IMG/VR virus record: IMGVR_UViG_3300026035_000001
Location: 1,634-65,633 of that record
DNA length: 64,000 nt
Source: a virus
Lineage: Duplodnaviria; Caudoviricetes
Direction: 5' to 3' (one strand)
The translations under genes and the position numbers were made by a program. A model generated the notes under the pieces. It worked only from the letters and a program-made list of their open reading frames with translations. It was not told the origin of the DNA and did not search any database. Of the stretch, positions 1-5,240 are shown one piece after another (the stretch's first letter is position 1; each line of letters opens with the position of its first letter).

Positions 1-55
1 AGGCAGGCGCCTGATGAGCGTCTATGAGGGTGTTCGATTCACTCAGGGACTACCA
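1..55 (+). tRNA. tRNA-Ile(GAT), 5'-truncated by window edge
   Basis: Anticodon arm GGCGC-CT GAT GA-GCGTC (6-22), T arm GGGTG-TTCGATT-CACTC, 3' AGGGACT-A-CCA ending at 55. Confidence 0.85.
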
Positions 56-69
56 TTCGGAGAAAGCCA

Positions 70-273
70 ATGCCGGTCGCTGTCGAGGTGTTGATGGAGG
101 AGGCTCGGCGCGAGCGCTGGCGTGCGCAGGACGCGATCCCGATCAGCTGCGGGTGCGTATTCTGCGACATCGGCATCGAGCCGGTGCGGCTGCGCCGCAA
201 TTGGGTGCACCACATCCGCGGCTCCGGCCGGCTGATTCGCTGCAACTTCAAGAACCTGAAACCGGGCGTCTGA
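70..273 (+). CDS. small Cys/His-rich hypothetical protein inside tRNA array
   Basis: GGAG SD upstream; 67 aa with CxCxxC and HH..C; fills the spacer between two tRNAs. Confidence 0.6.
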   Translation: MPVAVEVLMEEARRERWRAQDAIPISCGCVFCDIGIEPVRLRRNWVHHIRGSGRLIRCNFKNLKPGV

Positions 274-277
274 TCAC

Positions 278-359
278 GGACCCCGAACGTAAAGCAGGAT
301 GGTCTTGCAAGGGACTTTTAACCCCTCCGTAAGTGGCTCGAAACCACCGGGGTTCGCCA
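278..359 (+). tRNA. tRNA-Lys(TTT), irregular
   Basis: Acceptor GGACCCC/GGGGTTC, G73, CCA; loop CT TTT AA; 9-nt linker before a 5-6 bp D stem; T loop CTCGAAA. Confidence 0.85.
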
Positions 360-362
360 TTC

Positions 363-437
363 GGATCGATAGTTCAGTGCCAGAACGGCGGCCTCTTAAC
401 CCGCGCGTCCGGGGTTGGATTCCCCGTCGATCCACCA
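363..437 (+). tRNA. tRNA-Lys(CTT)
   Basis: Acceptor GGATCGA/TCGATCC, A73, CCA; loop CT CTT AA; D loop AGTGCCA, T loop TTGGATT. Confidence 0.9.
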
Positions 438-442
438 ATTTC

Positions 443-518
443 GTGCCTGTACCCCAACGGTAGAGGGATCGCGTTGAGGACGCGCTCAGTGGGTGTTCGA
501 GTCACCCCAGGCACACCA
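443..518 (+). tRNA. tRNA-Leu(GAG) with short variable loop
   Basis: Acceptor GTGCCTG/CAGGCAC, A73, CCA; loop TT GAG GA; variable region only TCAGT. Confidence 0.85.
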
Positions 519-525
519 TTTTTTT

Positions 526-624
526 GGGTCTGAAACCGTAGACGGTCTAGAAGCGGGACCGAAGATCGAAGTGCCCTTAGCGGCCGGAAGATCGCGGATG
601 TGGGATCGTCGCCCACCTGACCTA
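526..624 (+). ncRNA. tRNA-shaped RNA without a canonical anticodon loop
   Basis: Acceptor-like GGGTCTG/CTGACCT (one U.U), T arm GTGGG-ATCGTCG-CCCAC, V-arm-like GCGGCC-GGAA-GATCGC; no 7-nt anticodon loop, no encoded CCA. Confidence 0.6.
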
Positions 625-625
625 T

Positions 626-700
626 GGCCCTATAGCTCAACGGTGGAGCACCCCCCTGTCACGGGGAAGGTCCGGGGGTCAGCACCCCGTAGGGTCGCCA
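626..700 (+). tRNA. tRNA-Asp(GTC)
   Basis: Acceptor GGCCCTA/TAGGGTC, G73, CCA; loop CT GTC AC; T loop GTCAGCA. Confidence 0.9.
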
Positions 701-705
701 ATCAT

Positions 706-751
706 GGAGGCGTACCGCATAGGCGGATAACGGCGCCAGCCGGCCTCCACA
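706..751 (+). ncRNA. Y-shaped mini RNA (three-way junction)
   Basis: Stem GGAGGC/GCCTCC encloses hairpins CCGC-ATAG-GCGG and CGGC-GCCA-GCCG; 3' tail ACA. Confidence 0.5.
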
Positions 752-754
752 CTT

Positions 755-829
755 CGGAGTATGGGTCAGTGGTTGATCGCTCGGTTTGGGGCCGAGACAA
801 GGCGGGTTCGATTCCTGCTGCTCCGACCA
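755..829 (+). tRNA. tRNA-Pro(TGG)
   Basis: CGGAGTA/TGCTCCG, A73, CCA; loop TT TGG GG. Confidence 0.95.
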
Positions 830-834
830 ATTTT

Positions 835-924
835 GGGCCTTAGCACAGGTGTGCGGCTCGGTTTTATAAACCGGGGCACCGGACGGGTGTAGACGGCTCG
901 GCTCGATACCGAGGAGGCCTACCA
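835..924 (+). tRNA. irregular tRNA with UAU anticodon (nominal Ile) and long variable arm
   Basis: GGGCCTT/GAGGCCT, A73, CCA 922-924; D arm GCAC-AGGT-GTGC; loop TT TAT AA; V stem GCACC/GGTGT; T loop CTCGATA. Confidence 0.8.
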
Positions 925-1271
925 TGAAAGTCATCGCTAAGTATTTGGCGATGGAGCAGCCGCCGCTCCTGCAGCTGTGGGTACATGACGCGCCGCACCG
1001 GCGCATGCACGTGAGGGTGATCCAGGAGTACCGGCGCGCGATCTTGGCGGCGTGCCAGAAGGCTGGGATCATCACGCCGATCGCCGATCCGATCGAGCTC
1101 GATGTGCTGTTCGTCAATCCGTCGTCGCCCGATCTCGGCAATCTTTATCTGGCGCTGGAGCAAGCACTGGATGCGAAGGCACTGCGGCCGATGCCGGGCG
1201 TGGTGGTCGACGATAGCCTGATCGAGGCCGTGAAGATGGCCAAGTATTGGAATCAGGCGAAGAAAAAATAG
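924..1271 (+). CDS. RusA-like protein with degenerate active site
   Basis: PIELDVLF...PDLGNLYLALEQAL...VVVDDSLI matches the RusA pattern (DLDNxxKxxxDAL...DDxxV); SD GAGGAGG 6 nt upstream. Confidence 0.75.
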   Translation: MKVIAKYLAMEQPPLLQLWVHDAPHRRMHVRVIQEYRRAILAACQKAGIITPIADPIELDVLFVNPSSPDLGNLYLALEQALDAKALRPMPGVVVDDSLIEAVKMAKYWNQAKKK

Positions 1272-1348
1272 GATCTCTTAGCTCAACTGGATCGAGCGCC
1301 GGCCTCCGAAGCCGGGAGATCGGCGTTCGAGTCGCCGGGAGATCGCCA
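1272..1348 (+). tRNA. tRNA-Arg(CCG)
   Basis: GATCTCT/GGAGATC, G73, CCA; loop CT CCG AA; A20 present. Confidence 0.95.
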
Positions 1349-1351
1349 AAT

Positions 1352-1439
1352 GGATGGTCCAGGTGCAATGGTGCGCCAGCGGTCTTGAAAACCGTGGCCC
1401 GGGCAACCGGTGGGGGTTCGATTCCTCGGCCATCCGCCA
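1352..1439 (+). tRNA. tRNA-Ser(TGA)
   Basis: GGATGGT/GCCATCC, G73, CCA; loop CT TGA AA; long V arm. Confidence 0.92.
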
Positions 1440-1440
1440 A

Positions 1441-1589
1441 GAAGGGCTGATGCCTCACGACTGCGCCGGATTCGTAGTCATACGTTTGGGTTTGGTATCA
1501 CGATTCAAAGCCTTCCCGGAGGGCCCCGATCAATTCTGTGCAGGCCGGAGGTACGCCGCGCACGCGAGAGAGTTCAAAGCCTCGCACCA
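1441..1589 (+). ncRNA. two irregular structured RNAs, the second ending in ACCA
   Basis: 1441-1515: stems GAAGG/CCTTC, TGATGCC/GGTATCA, GACTGC/GTAGTC. 1538-1589: hairpin GCGAG/CTCGC followed by A-CCA. Both contain TTCAAAGCCT. Confidence 0.4.
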
Positions 1590-1591
1590 AT

Positions 1592-1666
1592 TGCAGGTAA
1601 AGGTCGGGTGACCCGTTCGGTCTCATAAGCCGGAACAGCAGGATTCGAGTTCCTGGCCTGCAACCA
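1592..1666 (+). tRNA. tRNA(CAT), elongator Met or Ile2 type
   Basis: TGCAGGT/GCCTGCA, A73, CCA; loop CT CAT AA; lacks the initiator GGG/CCC; 4-nt D loop. Confidence 0.85.
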
Positions 1667-1671
1667 ATTTC

Positions 1672-1762
1672 GGGTGGCGCAAGTAAGGATCGGCGGTCCG
1701 ATCGCCGCGCTGTAAACGCGGTCCCTTTGGGCAGGATGTTCAACTCAGTCCGTCACCCACCA
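1672..1762 (+). tRNA. tRNA-Tyr(GTA), irregular
   Basis: GGGTGGC/GTCACCC, A73, CCA; loop CT GTA AA; 9-nt linker, D arm GATCGG-CGGT-CCGATC; bulged T stem. Confidence 0.85.
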
Positions 1763-1763
1763 T

Positions 1764-1837
1764 GCGGCCATAGCTCAATGGCAGAGTTCGACCTTGCCAA
1801 GGTCGAGACGTCGGATCGTAACCGACTGGCCGCTCCA
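1764..1837 (+). tRNA. tRNA-Gly(GCC)
   Basis: GCGGCCA/TGGCCGC, U73, CCA; loop TT GCC AA; T loop ATCGTAA. Confidence 0.93.
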
Positions 1838-1841
1838 ATTC

Positions 1842-2096
1842 AGTCCGCGCCCGGCGGTGGATGGCCGGCGGCGGCTCGCGCGATCGATACTGCGGGAAGT
1901 ACAACCGCGAAGGGTCGACGGGAATGCGCCGCGGCGCCAATCGAAACGGGATGCCATCTGCCCTCTGGGACGGCTCCTCGCGCGATGCAATACGGTAAGG
2001 GTTTGGCGTGCCCTCCTACTTCAACGAAGACCCGCAACCGCGGCAAATTAATGAAGAGGTGACCGTGAAGGCGGTCGAATAAAACGCCATCTATTC
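1842..2096 (+). ncRNA. ~255-nt putative structured RNA between tRNA-Gly and tRNA-Phe
   Basis: No convincing ORF; hairpins CCGGC/GCCGG, GCGG/CCGC, AGGG/CCCT, GACCG/CGGTC, GAATA/TATTC; long-range GGGTC(1912)/GACCC(2029); CTCGCGCGAT occurs twice. Confidence 0.45.
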
Positions 2097-2172
2097 GCCC
2101 TGTTAGCAAATCTGGTGATTGCACGCGGCTGAAGACCGCAGGAGGCCTGTTCGAATCAGGCGCAGGGCACCA
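2097..2172 (+). tRNA. tRNA-Phe(GAA)
   Basis: GCCCTGT/GCAGGGC, A73, CCA; loop CT GAA GA. Confidence 0.93.
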
Positions 2173-2176
2173 ATTC

Positions 2177-2248
2177 GGGGAAAGCGTTGGGACGCAGTGA
2201 CCCTTTGCACGGCTCACGTTCGGAGTTCAATTCTCCGTTTCTCCACCA
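2177..2248 (+). tRNA. tRNA-Ala(TGC), compact core
   Basis: GGGGAAA/TTTCTCC with G3.U70, A73, CCA; D arm GCGT-TGGG-ACGC directly after the acceptor; loop TT TGC AC; 3-nt V loop. Confidence 0.85.
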
Positions 2249-2256
2249 TCTTCTAT

Positions 2257-2333
2257 TCCGGTCGGGCCATCTTGGTGATGGCGGGCGGCTGTTAACCGCC
2301 ATGCGGCAGGTTCGAAACCTGCGACCGGAGCCA
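2257..2333 (+). tRNA. tRNA-Asn(GTT)
   Basis: TCCGGTC/GACCGGA, G73, CCA; loop CT GTT AA. Confidence 0.93.
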
Positions 2334-2334
2334 T

Positions 2335-2409
2335 GCTGCCGTCGTCTACTGGCTAGGATGCTGGGTTCTCAACCCGGTGAAGCGGGATCGATACCCGCCG
2401 GCAGTGCCA
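2335..2409 (+). tRNA. tRNA-Glu(CTC)
   Basis: GCTGCCG/CGGCAGT, G73, CCA; loop TT CTC AA; T loop ATCGATA. Confidence 0.92.
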
Positions 2410-2414
2410 TTTAC

Positions 2415-2490
2415 GGTCCCGTAGCACAATGGATAATGCGCCAGACTACGAATCTGGGAGGTCGGGGTTCGAATCCTCGCGGGATCGCCA
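2415..2490 (+). tRNA. tRNA-Arg(ACG)
   Basis: GGTCCCG/CGGGATC, G73, CCA; loop CT ACG AA; A20 present. Confidence 0.95.
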
Positions 2491-2491
2491 T

Positions 2492-2565
2492 CAGGATGAA
2501 AGATTGCGGAAGTCGGGCGGCCTCGGATGCTGCCAGTGGAGGTTCGACTCCTCCCATCCTGACCA
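2492..2565 (+). tRNA. tRNA-Pro(CGG) with A37
   Basis: CAGGATG/CATCCTG (C1-G72), A73, CCA; loop CT CGG AT; 6-bp anticodon stem, 3-nt V loop. Confidence 0.85.
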
Positions 2566-2569
2566 ACAT

Positions 2570-2639
2570 TGCGGTCCTCCAGGGGATAAGCCCGGCTCTG
2601 ACCCGGGCGACGTGGGTTCGAGTCCTACGGCCGCAGCCA
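2570..2639 (+). tRNA. tRNA-Gln(CTG), reduced D arm (70 nt)
   Basis: TGCGGTC/GGCCGCA (U1-A72), G73, CCA; loop CT CTG AC; D region only 13 nt. Confidence 0.85.
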
Positions 2640-2646
2640 ATCCTAT

Positions 2647-2721
2647 GACCGGATGCCAGAGCGGCGATGGGCGGGCCTGCAAAGCCCGGCAAGGGGCGTT
2701 CGACTCGCCCTCCGGTCTCCA
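2647..2721 (+). tRNA. tRNA-Cys(GCA)
   Basis: GACCGGA/TCCGGTC, U73, CCA; loop CT GCA AA. Confidence 0.93.
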
Positions 2722-2723
2722 AT

Positions 2724-2800
2724 GCCCCGGTAGCTCAGTGGTAGAGCGCGCGTCTTCTAAACGCGATCTGGCGGGTGTTCGAATCACCCTCGGGGCTCCA
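2724..2800 (+). tRNA. tRNA(TCT), nominal Arg, with U73 and no A20
   Basis: GCCCCGG/TCGGGGC, U73, CCA; loop CT TCT AA; D loop AGTGGTA; 7-nt V region. Confidence 0.85.
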
Positions 2801-2804
2801 ATTT

Positions 2805-2880
2805 GGCCACGTACCGGTCGGGCCTCCTAAGCTCGATACCGTAACTGGAGATGGGCGTTCGACTCGCCCCGTGGCCACCA
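2805..2880 (+). tRNA. D-armless tRNA(CCT), nominal Arg
   Basis: GGCCACG/CGTGGCC, A73, CCA; only TACCGGT between acceptor and anticodon stems; loop CT CCT AA; 17-nt variable region; canonical T arm. Confidence 0.75.
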
Positions 2881-2881
2881 T

Positions 2882-2969
2882 GGAAGGCTAACCCGGCGGG
2901 GCCGGGCGTCGATTGCTAACCGATCGGCGGCGACTATGCCGTGAGGATCGTGCCCTCAGCCTTCCGCCA
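2882..2969 (+). tRNA. tRNA-Ser(GCT)
   Basis: GGAAGGC/GCCTTCC, G73, CCA; loop TT GCT AA; long V arm; T loop ATCGTGC. Confidence 0.9.
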
Positions 2970-2974
2970 TTCAT

Positions 2975-3049
2975 GCGACCTTGGGTCATTGGTTGATCGC
3001 CGGCCTTCCAAGCCGTGCCAAGGGAGTTCGATTCTCCCAGGTCGCTCCA
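2975..3049 (+). tRNA. tRNA-Gly(TCC)
   Basis: GCGACCT/AGGTCGC, U73, CCA; loop CT TCC AA. Confidence 0.95.
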
Positions 3050-3050
3050 T

Positions 3051-3125
3051 GCTGCGTTCGTCTACTGGCTAGGATAGCGGTCCTTCAAACCGCGGGAAGG
3101 GGATCGAAACCCCTACGCAGCCCCA
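3051..3125 (+). tRNA. tRNA-Glu(TTC) with C33 and C73
   Basis: GCTGCGT/ACGCAGC, C73, CCA; loop CC TTC AA; D arm identical to that of tRNA-Glu(CTC). Confidence 0.85.
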
Positions 3126-3130
3126 AATTT

Positions 3131-3204
3131 GGGCGGTTCGTTTAACGGTAGGACGGCAGTTTTTGAGGCTGCCTATGTGGGTTCGAATCCTACACCGCCT
3201 GCCA
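3131..3204 (+). tRNA. tRNA-Gln(TTG)
   Basis: GGGCGGT/ACCGCCT, G73, CCA; loop TT TTG AG. Confidence 0.92.
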
Positions 3205-3205
3205 A

Positions 3206-3276
3206 CGCTCTCCCTCCGGCGAGGAAACGGCTTTCATACGGCTGTCAGGCGCGATCGACACGCGCGTGAGCGACCA
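3206..3276 (+). tRNA. tRNA(CAT), compact core
   Basis: CGCTCTC/GTGAGCG, A73, CCA; D arm CCTC-CGGC-GAGG with no connector; 6-bp anticodon stem, loop TT CAT AC; V loop CAG; T loop ATCGACA. Confidence 0.75.
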
Positions 3277-3281
3277 ATCAT

Positions 3282-3358
3282 GCTGGAGATGCTCGATGGC
3301 AACGGGCGGCCGGACTGTGAATCCGGAGTACTCGGTTCGATTCCGAGCTCCAGTACCA
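3282..3358 (+). tRNA. tRNA-His(GTG), alphaproteobacterial type (no G-1)
   Basis: GCTGGAG/CTCCAGT (G1.U72), A73, T at -1, CCA; loop CT GTG AA. Confidence 0.92.
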
Positions 3359-3363
3359 AAATT

Positions 3364-3435
3364 ATCGGTGGGCTCCGGGAGCCGGCAGGTCTCCAAAACT
3401 TCGCCGCGAGGGTTCGACACCTTCCACCGGTGCCA
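3364..3435 (+). tRNA. tRNA-Trp(CCA), compact core
   Basis: ATCGGTG/CACCGGT, G73, CCA; D arm GGCTC-CGG-GAGCC with no connector; loop CT CCA AA; extended, bulged anticodon stem. Confidence 0.8.
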
Positions 3436-3443
3436 ATATCAAG

Positions 3444-3476
3444 CCCGGTCCCTTTCCCAGGGGCCGGCCTTTTTTA
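3444..3476 (+). terminator. intrinsic terminator of tRNA array
   Basis: Stem CCGGTCCCT/AGGGGCCGG followed by CCTTTTTT. Confidence 0.85.
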
Positions 3477-3484
3477 TTGTGATG

Positions 3485-3679
3485 TCAATGCAAATCGCGG
3501 TCTTCCTTGGAGTACGGCCCCTTGGCCGATGGCGTCCTTTCGATGCGACAGCCGGACCCACACATGCGCCCGTTCGGCGTCTGGTCGAAGCGGCCCCCGC
3601 ATGTCTCACAAGTCTTATTGTGACGCGCCAACCCCATGGCGCGGCGAACCTTTGTTGGCGTCACGTTGTTGGCCATCAC
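3485..3679 (-). CDS. small Cys-rich hypothetical protein
   Basis: 64 aa, CxxC...CxxxC; TGATG coupling to the upstream gene. Confidence 0.55.
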   Translation of the reverse strand: MMANNVTPTKVRRAMGLARHNKTCETCGGRFDQTPNGRMCGSGCRIERTPSAKGPYSKEDRDLH

Positions 3680-3885
3680 AGTTCCTTTAACTGCTGATTA
3701 GTGACGCTCTGTCGCGTCACGTAGGCTTGCGCATAGGCAATTGCTGACCCGAGATTTCGCAACACCTCTTGGATGTCGCCGAACTCCGGTTCCGGATTGG
3801 TGGCGATCTCGTCAAAGAATTTTTCATCCTTCAGCCAGCGCCGATAAATCGCTTTGACTTTGCGGGCTTTCTGCGCTGGCGTCAT
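3676..3885 (-). CDS. hypothetical protein
   Basis: 69-aa ORF in a tightly packed operon. Confidence 0.65.
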   Translation of the reverse strand: MTPAQKARKVKAIYRRWLKDEKFFDEIATNPEPEFGDIQEVLRNLGSAIAYAQAYVTRQSVTNQQLKEL

Positions 3886-3895
3886 CGCTAACTAC

Positions 3896-4618
3896 CTACT
3901 TCGGAAATTGCCTGATCATCAGATCGTCCGGGATTGCAGTCTTTCCGGTCATCTGCTTCATGAAGAACGGAACCTCCCGCTCGGCGCATTCGTCGCGGAG
4001 CTCCCGCGCCCAGGCCGGCTCCATCATGCGGGCGCCGGGCCCGCTCTCTCCGCCGCAGATCAGCCAATCCGGGAGATGAGATTTTGGAAACTTGCGCGTG
4101 GTGAGCGGACCGAGCGCTGGTTCATAGGAGATAAACCGCACGATGGCGGGGAGCTCCAGCATGATCTCCCACCGGCGGTCGAAAGCGTCCTGGTCTTCGG
4201 TCGTGGTGCCGAGCCAGATATTGCCCGGGAACCAGAACGGATGCATCATCTTTTCGATGTTCTCCGGGCGCTTGGTCAAGAGCAGCCAATCAAGCTCTGG
4301 CGTATCCATGATCATATGGAACAGGTCGGCCCGCGCGCCGGCAGGGGCCTTGTTGTCGAACACGTCGGCAAGGCTGGCACAGAAGACGCGCGGGCGCCGG
4401 CCAGAGGCTTTGGCAGCCTTGGCCCATCGGTAGGGCTGGCGCCAGTTTGACGCACTGGTGCGCACGCGGGCGCCGTGAGGACCCCATTCGACGCGATGGT
4501 ATCGCTTGTCCATCAGGGTCTCCGCATAGCAAAGGTCGCAGCCGGCGGAGACCTTCTGGCAGCCGATCCAGGGGTTGAACGTATGATCGCACCATGCGAT
4601 TGCAGTTTTCTCGCCCAT
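3896..4618 (-). CDS. DUF5131 (phage Gp37/Gp68) family protein
   Basis: IAWCDHTFNPWIGCQKVSAGCDLCYAE, VFCASLADVFD, LLLTKRP, RFISYEPALG, WLICGGESG, FFMKQM; start at MGEKT by TGATG coupling. Confidence 0.9.
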   Translation of the reverse strand: MGEKTAIAWCDHTFNPWIGCQKVSAGCDLCYAETLMDKRYHRVEWGPHGARVRTSASNWRQPYRWAKAAKASGRRPRVFCASLADVFDNKAPAGARADLFHMIMDTPELDWLLLTKRPENIEKMMHPFWFPGNIWLGTTTEDQDAFDRRWEIMLELPAIVRFISYEPALGPLTTRKFPKSHLPDWLICGGESGPGARMMEPAWARELRDECAEREVPFFMKQMTGKTAIPDDLMIRQFPK

Positions 4619-5031
4619 CAGATCGGTTCCCATTTGATCAGGTCGCCATTGAAGTAACCGACTCCATGCTCCTGGCGCCAGAAATCGTACATATCGCCGC
4701 AGTCGTTGAAACCGTCGGCTTGGGCGAAATCGATTCGCTCAAGATCGGACAGCCAGTGCTTGCCGACGCGGATATCGAGGCCGTAAGGGGTTGGCGAGAC
4801 ATTGATCCGGATCGGGACCACCTCGATGCAGCGGGCCTCGCCGATCTTCTGACAGTGCTTTGTCCTCTGGGCATAGTAAAGCTGCAGGATTTCCCCCGGC
4901 CGAGCGTGGCGCCGCCGCGGCAGGCGGATTGTCTGCCGCTTTGGTGCGCAATCGAATGACAGGCTGACCGACGACAGGCCAACCCGGATCGGCTGCACAA
5001 ACCGCTGTTTGAAGCTATAGGCGACCATCAT
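4618..5031 (-). CDS. ASCH/PUA-like domain protein
   Basis: YSFKQRFVQPI...KRQTIR...RPGEILQLY...FAQADGF pattern typical of ASCH-like phage proteins. Confidence 0.7.
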   Translation of the reverse strand: MMVAYSFKQRFVQPIRVGLSSVSLSFDCAPKRQTIRLPRRRHARPGEILQLYYAQRTKHCQKIGEARCIEVVPIRINVSPTPYGLDIRVGKHWLSDLERIDFAQADGFNDCGDMYDFWRQEHGVGYFNGDLIKWEPI

Positions 5032-5240
5032 GCTCTCCGGTGATAGACGCCGATGCCCTTGTTCGGCGTGCCGGTGCGGGTGATCACGTCATCGGCGAGC
5101 ATGGTGCTGACCGCACGCAATACCTTCTGCGTCGAGAGGCCGGTTGTGGCGGAGATGTCTTTCAGGCTGGCGCCGGCCGGCGGGATTGCGCTCAGGACCC
5201 CATTAAGTATTGCGACGTCTTCGCTTCCACGGTTTTCCAT
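5028..5240 (-). CDS. winged-HTH protein
   Basis: ASLKDISATTGLSTQKVLRAVSTML...ITRTG; start refined to MENRG. Confidence 0.65.
   Translation of the reverse strand: MENRGSEDVAILNGVLSAIPPAGASLKDISATTGLSTQKVLRAVSTMLADDVITRTGTPNKGIGVYHRRA

Follow-up and report, generated by a model that had tools for sequence, protein, structure and literature searches.

Arrays of tRNA genes are already known from phages, as is tRNA-Ser with an 8/4 acceptor/T branch. In a published table, phages that carry 20-37 tRNAs range from 80 to 165 kb in genome size, and the listed podoviruses carry 0-9 tRNAs, with 11 in one 167-kb entry (PMC13015707). The clusters of T5, the Felix O1-like Ounavirinae and Bxz1-like mycobacteriophages consist of tandem genes on the same strand, cover nearly all amino acids, are co-transcribed and occur in tailed phages (PMC13015707). 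The locus analyzed here resembles them in these respects. It lies in a stretch of 64,000 nucleotides (nt), referred to as the window, that comprises bases 1634-65633 of a 65,633-bp virus record in IMG/VR (IMGVR_UViG_3300026035_000001, G000), and positions 1-3476 of the window are occupied by tRNA genes, embedded reading frames and spacers. In contrast to the known clusters of 22-37 genes in genomes of 80-165 kb, approximately 35 genes are accommodated here in 65.6 kb, about one third of them do not conform to the cloverleaf, and the head genes of different carriers are unrelated. We consider it rather likely that the region represents most of a probably polycistronic array of about 4.2 kb with approximately 35 working tRNA genes, which would form a near-complete decoding set with alternative folds in about one third of the units and would serve to sustain translation. 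As far as can be judged from their sequences, the alternative folds still present the acceptor/T branch, the anticodon arm and the synthetase identity marks.

Irregular tRNAs have been noted in polycistrons before, in the main text of the study that describes allo-tRNAs (PMC5389517). We found no paper describing the architectures termed classes A, B, C or E below, and the main text of PMC5389517 does not contain A, C or E.

Composition of the array and detection of its units

ARAGORN reported 24 complete tRNAs at window positions 363-3435, all on the + strand, and 30 tRNAs in the whole 65,633-bp genome. Because tRNA-sized gaps were left between these genes, we used our own parser, which looks for 7-bp acceptor pairing followed by the discriminator base (N73) and CCA, plus a T arm and an anticodon arm. 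The parser recovered the ARAGORN genes except for Thr(UGU), which falls just under its cut-off, and added Lys(UUU) at 278-359, Tyr(GUA) at 1672-1762, Arg(CCU) at 2805-2880, a CAU tRNA at 3206-3276 and a Leu(CAG) upstream of the window. Counting an Ile(GAU) cut at the window start, this amounts to 29 anticodon-bearing units for 18 amino acids, precisely the number given by a first-pass annotation made from the sequence. Its suggestion that Thr and Val genes may precede the window was confirmed on the whole genome, where Thr (3 genes), Val and two Leu genes upstream of the window bring the total to 35 units and all 20 amino acids. The tandem array of 30 ARAGORN calls and 5 parser units spans genome positions 865-5068 on one strand. 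The tight packing, encoded CCA ends and single terminator described earlier were also found: gaps between neighboring units measure 1-8 nt, every unit ends with N73 and an encoded CCA, and the single + strand intrinsic terminator within positions 1-3800 (3445-3467 plus a T run) closes the array. In the remaining 60 kb of the genome, the parser gave 0 matches on one strand and 3 weak matches on the other, and because matches are so rare there, the array stands far above chance.

According to the dimensions of a cloverleaf (7-bp acceptor stem, 2-nt connector, D hairpin, 5-bp anticodon stem and 5-bp T stem), 11 of the 35 units deviate. Non-standard architecture was assigned to approximately 11 of the 35 genome units, 10 of them in the window, namely classes A, B, B', C and E, the 8/4 Ser and the UAU tRNA, and about seven further units have odd T loops or C33. 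The earlier description of the array as dominated by irregular cloverleaves was thus correct in that irregular units are present, but too strong in the word dominated. Among approximately 1000 unique units of the family, the same departures return for the same isoacceptors; C33 occurs in 84 of 990 unique units, mostly Ile, Glu and Val, and 44% of the T loops depart from the usual TTC start. These family-wide tallies of dimensions are approximate, since the parser misreads a few canonical Gln(CUG) genes as 66-nt units.

It had been predicted that tRNA finders would score the irregular units low or miss them, and this was borne out with ARAGORN and the Rfam models. ARAGORN in default mode misses 5 of the 35 genome units and family-wide left 238 of 999 unique units uncalled, so that standard annotation under-counts phage tRNAs by about a quarter in this family. 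The gathering score of the Rfam tRNA model (RF00005, 29 bits) is reached by 15 window units and the cut-off of the selenocysteine (Sec) tRNA model (RF01852, 47 bits) by Ser(UGA), and 11 or 12 of the 28 complete window units reach no gathering score. Below that of RF00005 are Lys(UUU), the UAU tRNA, the CAU tRNA at 1592, Tyr, Ala, Asn, Gln(CUG), Arg(CCU), Ser(GCU), the 71-nt CAU tRNA (CAU-71) and Trp; for Cys, which among the matches listed has a row for the Sec model alone, the score with RF00005 is uncertain.

Alternative architectures

Relatives were found via a 115-amino-acid open reading frame (ORF) embedded in the array, which yielded 17 IMG/VR, 47 metagenome and 4 genome loci, 68 in total. 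The same ordered array surrounds the ORF in these loci wherever the flanking sequence suffices. Across the classes, which comprise 4-35 distinct homologues each, 91-100% of the alignment cells are paired and every helix contains many double changes. In covariation tests of class A, Lys(UUU), Leu, Ala, CAU and Tyr, 0 of 500 shuffles reached the observed score, and slid controls scored far lower. Covariation in homologous arrays had been proposed as a check on the irregular folds; in the arrays collected here, compensatory changes were present in the old as well as in the new helices. The window units with special designs are the following:

278-359, + strand: tRNA-Lys(UUU), class B, 8/4 acceptor/T branch, 8-nt insert; missed by ARAGORN default, parser unit
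443-518, + strand: tRNA-Leu(GAG), short variable loop (class I shape), A73; ARAGORN
835-924, + strand: UAU-anticodon tRNA, 1-nt connector, 4-bp D stem with 4-nt loop, 6-bp anticodon stem, long variable arm, A73; ARAGORN
1352-1439, + strand: tRNA-Ser(UGA), 8/4, long variable arm, G73; 48.2 bits with the Rfam tRNA-Sec model, 8/4 in the parser
1592-1666, + strand: tRNA(CAU), 3-nt connector, 6-bp anticodon stem; ARAGORN score 100.7, no Rfam match
1672-1762, + strand: tRNA-Tyr(GUA), class B', A73; missed by ARAGORN default, parser unit
2177-2248, + strand: tRNA-Ala(UGC), class E, 4-bp D stem with 4-nt loop, 7-bp anticodon stem, 3-nt variable loop, G3-U70; no Rfam match
2570-2639, + strand: tRNA-Gln(CUG), compact, 70 nt; ARAGORN, Rfam 24.7 bits, under the cut-off
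2805-2880, + strand: tRNA-Arg(CCU), class A, no D hairpin; missed by ARAGORN, parser unit
3206-3276, + strand: tRNA(CAU), class E, 71 nt; missed by ARAGORN default, parser unit
3364-3435, + strand: tRNA-Trp(CCA), class E, G73; ARAGORN, best Rfam score 17.8 bits

In class A, represented in the window by Arg(CCU), the anticodon stem begins no more than 7-8 nt after the acceptor stem, a further 17-23 nt lie 3' of the anticodon arm, and the bases preceding this arm pair with those immediately 3' of it in a nested helix. This rewired D arm is shared by the window gene and 29 relatives (alignment A2, n = 30, 91% paired). Two core new pairs are formed in 30/30 and 28/30 sequences by CG, GC and AU types and a third pair in half of them, and the predicted pair has the top covariation score among 161 candidate column pairs between both segments. 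All 30 sequences retain U8, A9, an A14-like A and the GG-A of an Arg-D-loop-like segment 3' of the anticodon arm; the acceptor and T stems are 99.5% and 100% paired, respectively, and CCA is intact. A20 is the main identity mark for ArgRS, and the A20-like base of the GG-A is kept in 30/30. In our reading of the alignment, class A may have the counterpart of positions 22-25 placed 5' of the anticodon arm and the counterparts of positions 10-13 and of the D loop 3' of it. The D/anticodon stack and the contact between D loop and T loop could thereby persist under altered chain connectivity. On other contigs of IMG/VR, a pattern scan identified at least 49 more Arg(ACG) genes of class A that have the full tRNA context, and the standard helices of independent class A genes from IMG/VR are 99-100% paired with plentiful double changes. 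The bare pattern count of at least 120 was not used, as chance matches are not negligible. In a blastn search against 50,697 phage records, the class A gene had no match and the whole region gave only short single-tRNA matches. D-armless mitochondrial tRNAs (tRNA-Ser(AGY) and those of nematodes) share the absent D hairpin and an extended anticodon helix with class A (PMC7609411), but class A differs from them by a full T arm, U8, A9 and the D-loop-like GG-A after the anticodon arm, and by residing in a bacterial virus that is obliged to use standard bacterial factors.

Classes B and C contain an additional helix in the core. In the class B Lys(UUU), the insert uses its first three bases to form a helix with the variable loop that is 100% paired and shows double changes in two pairs, alignment A3 is 95% paired overall, and the eighth acceptor pair changes from G-C to A-U in one relative. 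The 8/4 tRNA with an 'extra loop' that is noted in the main text of PMC5389517 may resemble class B. In the class C Leu(CAG), which lies upstream of the window, U8-G9 is followed by an insert of 7 nt that forms pairs with the initial three bases of the 6-nt variable loop, the normal Leu D arm is retained, and all 23 pairs are formed in 6/6 sequences.

In the class B' Tyr, the acceptor stem has 8 bp, the connector 8 nt, the D stem 6 bp and its loop 4 nt, and the variable region forms a hairpin (alignment A9, 94% paired). Pairing of the connector with the variable-arm loop was considered and rejected, as it was inconsistent over four sequences examined by eye. Acceptor and D stem dimensions are those of bacterial tRNA-Sec, and class E in turn is similar to tRNA-Pyl, the pyrrolysine tRNA, in its short or absent connector, tiny D loop, lengthened anticodon stem and 3-nt variable loop. 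In contrast to tRNA-Pyl and tRNA-Sec, anticodons and identity marks correspond here to Ala, Trp, Gln, CAU and Tyr, and the Tyr unit adds the 8-nt connector. A true tRNA-Sec (UCA, 8/5, 6-bp D stem) was not found: the RF01852 match is Ser(UGA), and the Sec-like Tyr carries GUA. The cultured Sinorhizobium phage Phosso (PV764938.1, 469 kb) contains an unannotated Sec-like Tyr(GUA) at 422325-422413 (L070:1491-1579) with the same design as 1672-1762, as well as an annotated 78-nt Leu(GAG) without the long arm.

Class E comprises Ala, CAU-71, Trp and Gln(CUG). These units lack a connector, their D stems of 4-5 bp close loops of 3-4 nt, their anticodon stems are 6-7 bp long, and their variable loops consist of 3 nt. 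The Ala alignment (A6, n = 23) is 98% paired and the CAU-71 alignment (A7, n = 19) 95.5%. CAU-71 has C1-G72 and is not initiator-like, and its sequence is compatible with either Met or Ile2 identity; a U-U mismatch at acceptor position 6-67 is present in 18/19 sequences.

Ser(UGA) agrees with the published (8/4) tRNA-Ser, which has a long arm and G73 and was reached by a match to the tRNA-Sec model, as described in the main text of PMC5389517. Lys(UUU) is also 8/4 but lacks the long arm. Allo-tRNAs, according to the same main text, mostly carry a non-Ser anticodon on a Ser body and are linked to toxin-antitoxin loci (PMC5389517), whereas anticodons and identity marks agree in the present array. 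No allo-tRNA in the strict sense is present in the array, since the sole 8/4 unit with a long arm has a Ser anticodon and the UAU tRNA is 7/5 with A73. Of the proposed link to allo-tRNAs, the part that holds is that Ser(UGA) belongs to the 8/4 type published in 2017; no other unit does.

Most Leu genes of the family have no long arm, and 20 of 28 Leu(GAG) genes have a variable loop of 5-6 nt. For the UAU tRNA, nine unique relatives were identified, and the same slot is filled in most related arrays by a CAU tRNA with an Ile-like D arm. In six of the nine relatives, the long arm ends in a 7-nt loop with central GAU, i.e. a second hairpin resembling an Ile anticodon arm (listed for L012:5894-5985, L039:498-588, L068:733-824, L013:5889-5983 and L061:594-687), which the window copy does not have. 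This hairpin could be a lure for IleRS or a relic of an arm duplication.

Function, mobility and alternative explanations

The identity elements are those that would be expected if the irregular units were charged with the amino acids that match their anticodons. G3-U70 is present in 23/23 compact Ala genes. The discriminator base is invariant and follows the bacterial rule in Ala, Asn, Asp, Cys, Gln(CUG), Leu(CAA/CAG/GAG/UAG), Phe, Pro, Trp, Tyr, Val, Ile and Ser(GCU/CGA), and is near-invariant in Met (68/70), Ser(UGA) (15/17) and Leu(UAA) (7/8). With strict wobble, 34 anticodons read 87% of the codon occurrences in the phage, and approximately 99.6% if U34 reads four-fold boxes. The proposal that the irregular tRNAs are co-evolving and maintained, rather than pseudogenes, is supported by the recurrence of the same designs in the same slots of dozens of loci, by compensatory changes in every helix and by the retained identity marks. 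The individual units would be released by RNase P and 3' trimming, charged by alphaproteobacterial synthetases of the host and used for decoding on host ribosomes. The most probable purpose would be to sustain phage translation when host tRNAs are depleted or cut by tRNA-targeting defenses.

Phage tRNAs can evade tRNA-targeting defenses (PMC10264068, PMC11555353), and evasion of nucleases by the present array is plausible. Enzymes that cut tRNAs would recognize such units less well, owing to the rebuilt D arm and core, the missing long arm of Leu and the C33 loops. We infer escape as a motive only because of published precedent (PMC10264068, PMC11555353, PMC13056530). The nuclease-escaping tRNAs of the T5 type are likewise phage replacements that differ from the host tRNAs, and C33 is a comparable anticodon-loop change (PMC10264068, PMC11555353). 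However, the T5-type tRNAs are normal cloverleaves in which point changes affect the anticodon loop, and their resistance was shown experimentally, whereas here the core architecture is altered and resistance is putative.

The array does not belong to a single phage lineage. Portal, TerL and major head protein of G000, which served as positive control, were absent from 4-5 complete array-bearing relatives, two of which share the G000 helicase with 51-61% identity. We therefore rejected the view that the array, which the first-pass annotation had tied to a defined phage genome, is a property of one lineage, and regard it as a module rather than a lineage marker. It is also present on a 361-kb contig of Bradyrhizobium sp. 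BR13661 (L066, NZ_JARXWB010000006.1 200594-209935), and another locus lies in an alphaproteobacterial metagenome-assembled genome. No homologue of the G000 portal was found in the BR13661 genome, where the array may be part of a different prophage or island. Arrays with rewired Arg, compact Ala and CAU lie within bacterial-size contigs in L066, L029 (a 1.06-Mb metagenome contig) and L021 (485 kb). An alphaproteobacterial host is in line with these relatives, with the guanine-cytosine (GC) content of 61% and with a tRNA-His that has A73 and no G-1. Canonical and rewired forms fill the same slot in different genomes, and thus appear interchangeable. A more far-reaching reading, which we put forward tentatively and give a somewhat less than even chance, is that of a portable cassette of alphaproteobacterial phages with a near-complete set of working tRNAs in at least five non-cloverleaf architectures, all of them charged by the usual synthetases of the host, employed on normal ribosomes and selected since the rebuilt cores would escape tRNA-targeting immunity. 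The five architectures of this joint and equally tentative claim would be the re-threaded D stem, the core helix enclosing D and anticodon arms, the Sec-like Tyr, the Pyl-like compact Ala/Trp/Gln/CAU and Leu without the long arm.

The array could also be a phage tRNA cluster of the ordinary kind that compensates for codon usage or tRNA supply, whose odd shapes are tolerated neutral drift with compensatory changes and have no link to defense. The dimensions are standard in two thirds of the units, Felix O1-like, T5-like and mycobacteriophage genomes of 80-165 kb contain large tRNA sets (PMC13015707), and the swapping of canonical and rewired forms in the same slot fits functional equivalence better than a special role. 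Nevertheless, we regard this explanation as rather unlikely, albeit deserving serious consideration, because the same few designs are found again with the same amino acids in numerous genomes, also outside the family, as exemplified by the class A Arg(ACG) genes in other IMG/VR contigs, and this recurrence points to selected solutions rather than random drift. Furthermore, supplementation of rare codons alone explains little, since the set is near-complete and the GC content host-like.

If the irregular units acted as tRNA-like decoys or regulators and titrated tRNA-targeting nucleases, toxins or modification enzymes, decoding would be left to the canonical units; yet Ala, Tyr, Trp, the decoders of AGG, AAA and AUA and all CAU tRNAs exist here only in irregular forms, and the conservation of anticodons, discriminator bases and G3-U70 is what one would expect of decoders that are charged. 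Two conserved units (701-754 and 1534-1589) that cannot decode, one of them ending in ACCA, would fit such a role, and some irregular tRNAs are charged but unused in translation according to the main text of PMC5389517. On balance, we consider decoys improbable as an explanation of the irregular units in general. Decay into pseudogenes, finally, appears very improbable: the high degree of pairing, the double changes throughout the helices, the intact CCA ends and the conserved slots and identity bases contradict it, barring artefacts of the parser in the alignments, even though three spacers are unconserved, unstructured and marginally tRNA-like and tRNA finders miss or underscore the irregular units.

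Several observations weigh against our preferred reading of the array as a maintained set of working tRNAs with alternative folds. The new helices are short (2-4 bp), and classes B, B' and C rest on 4-7 sequences each. For the class A set, RNAalifold predicted the three standard helices but not the new short one, for which the case therefore rests on pair counts. Among 35 class A genes collected independently, there is hardly any variation in the two new pairs, partly because the scan pattern fixes one base. A sigma-70 promoter scan upstream of and inside the array gave nothing above chance, and no design could be tied to any specific nuclease. With a host-like GC content of 61%, codon compensation is neither needed nor excluded. 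In addition, 519-625, 1440-1530 and 1838-2096 look like unconserved filler or relics, and decay thus does happen in the array.

Outside of mitochondria, the cloverleaf is treated as nearly universal. Since about one third of the units follow alternative designs that are conserved in phage and Bradyrhizobium relatives, tRNA shape looks more flexible than in the textbook view. One small, complete phage genome combines several conserved alternative wirings, and canonical versions of the isoacceptors in sister genomes provide natural matched pairs. Such pairs could show which features of the tRNA core are required by synthetases, by EF-Tu and RNase P, by modification enzymes and by the ribosome, and whether core rewiring counters tRNA-cutting immune systems. 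The rewired scaffolds are also a possible new chassis for orthogonal tRNA engineering, and relatives occur in a Bradyrhizobium isolate that can be cultured and in a phage of Sinorhizobium that is in culture.

Genome context, standard units and non-decoding elements

G000 has direct terminal repeats and a CheckV completeness of 100%. It encodes TerL, portal, major head protein, virion protein and a DnaB-like helicase, and no tyrosine integrase was found in it. The portal shares 33-41% identity with those of Microcystis, Rhizobium and Paracoccus phages that have small genomes of 39-44 kb, and at least one of these phages is named as a podophage. Ten PHROG scans of G000 gave no tail type, and 'podovirus-like' is a plausible but provisional label. 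The standard or near-standard units and the terminator are:

1-55, + strand: 3' part of tRNA-Ile(GAU), which begins 19 nt ahead of the window; ARAGORN genome 1614-1688, score 116
363-437, + strand: tRNA-Lys(CUU), standard dimensions, odd T loop; Rfam 53 bits
626-700, + strand: tRNA-Asp(GUC), T loop not TTC; ARAGORN, Rfam
755-829, + strand: tRNA-Pro(UGG), canonical; ARAGORN, Rfam
1272-1348, + strand: tRNA-Arg(CCG), canonical; ARAGORN, Rfam
1764-1837, + strand: tRNA-Gly(GCC), T loop starts with A; ARAGORN, Rfam
2097-2172, + strand: tRNA-Phe(GAA), canonical; ARAGORN, Rfam
2257-2333, + strand: tRNA-Asn(GUU), cloverleaf of diverged sequence; ARAGORN 116, no Rfam match
2335-2409, + strand: tRNA-Glu(CUC); ARAGORN, Rfam
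2415-2490, + strand: tRNA-Arg(ACG), canonical here, class A in the closest relative
2492-2565, + strand: tRNA-Pro(CGG); ARAGORN, Rfam
2647-2721, + strand: tRNA-Cys(GCA), U73; ARAGORN
2724-2800, + strand: tRNA-Arg(UCU), canonical; Rfam 62.8 bits
2882-2969, + strand: tRNA-Ser(GCU), long variable arm, odd T loop; no Rfam match
2975-3049, + strand: tRNA-Gly(UCC); ARAGORN, Rfam
3051-3125, + strand: tRNA-Glu(UUC), C33 here and in 13/26 family members
3131-3204, + strand: tRNA-Gln(UUG); ARAGORN, Rfam
3282-3358, + strand: tRNA-His(GUG), 7/5, A73, no encoded G-1, alphaproteobacterial type
3445-3476, + strand: intrinsic terminator, 9-bp stem and T run

A tRNA-His with A73 and without G-1 is described in the main text of PMC5389517 for a group of alphaproteobacteria; the (8/4) tRNA-His of alphaproteobacterial phage clusters in the same text differs from the 7/5 unit found here (PMC5389517). 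In Lys(CUU) at 363-437, the T loop has G at the expected C56 and the D loop G-C at the expected G18-G19, so that a swapped tertiary 19-56 pair is possible. Between and beside the tRNAs lie the following elements:

70-272, + strand: small ORF, 67 amino acids, Cys-rich, between Ile(GAU) and Lys(UUU)
519-625, + strand: spacer with cloverleaf-like fold, no CCA, unconserved, z-score about 0, marginal likeness to Asn-tRNA
701-754, + strand: non-decoding RNA E2, three-way hairpin, fold z-score -3.57
924-1271, + strand: ORF, 115 amino acids, RusA-like predicted fold, 225 homologues
1440-1530, + strand: spacer, unconserved
1534-1589, + strand: non-decoding RNA E3, bulged 8-bp hairpin with 9-nt loop, then 5-bp stem with T-loop-like loop, ACCA
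1838-2096, + strand: spacer, 259 nt, unconserved

Four to five non-decoding structured RNAs had been suggested, of which two (E2 and E3) were supported by conservation, covariation or fold energy; the rest found no support. E2 is 89-92% identical in L003 and L019, and its 3' half occurs in three more loci. For E3, 13 unique homologues were found with 91% pairing, and its hairpin covaries. Both are incapable of decoding and would be released by-products or tRNA-like accessory RNAs. The spacers at 519-625, 1440-1530 and 1838-2096 were rejected as structured RNAs, as they are not conserved and have z-scores near 0; the first of them is possibly a tRNA relic. A third conserved non-tRNA element of about 58 nt with two hairpins lies upstream of the window at genome positions 1110-1166 (window -524 to -468); it is 83-88% identical in L008, L016, L043 and L050, where it fills the gap between two Val tRNAs.

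The DNA of the 67-amino-acid ORF is conserved in about 10 related arrays, and its product had no Pfam or PHROG match. The start codon ATG of the 115-amino-acid ORF shares the A of the CCA of the preceding tRNA, an overlap that is kept in most relatives. Its product had no match in Pfam, PHROG or the PDB sequence profile. The AlphaFold2 model (predicted local distance difference test score, pLDDT, 91.7) weakly suggests a resemblance to the RusA resolvase fold, the top four PDB fold matches being E. coli RusA with probabilities of 0.96-0.99 and E values of 0.025-0.075. Just downstream of the array, on the - strand at window positions 3896-4633, a DUF5131 protein is encoded (Pfam E 1.5e-71).

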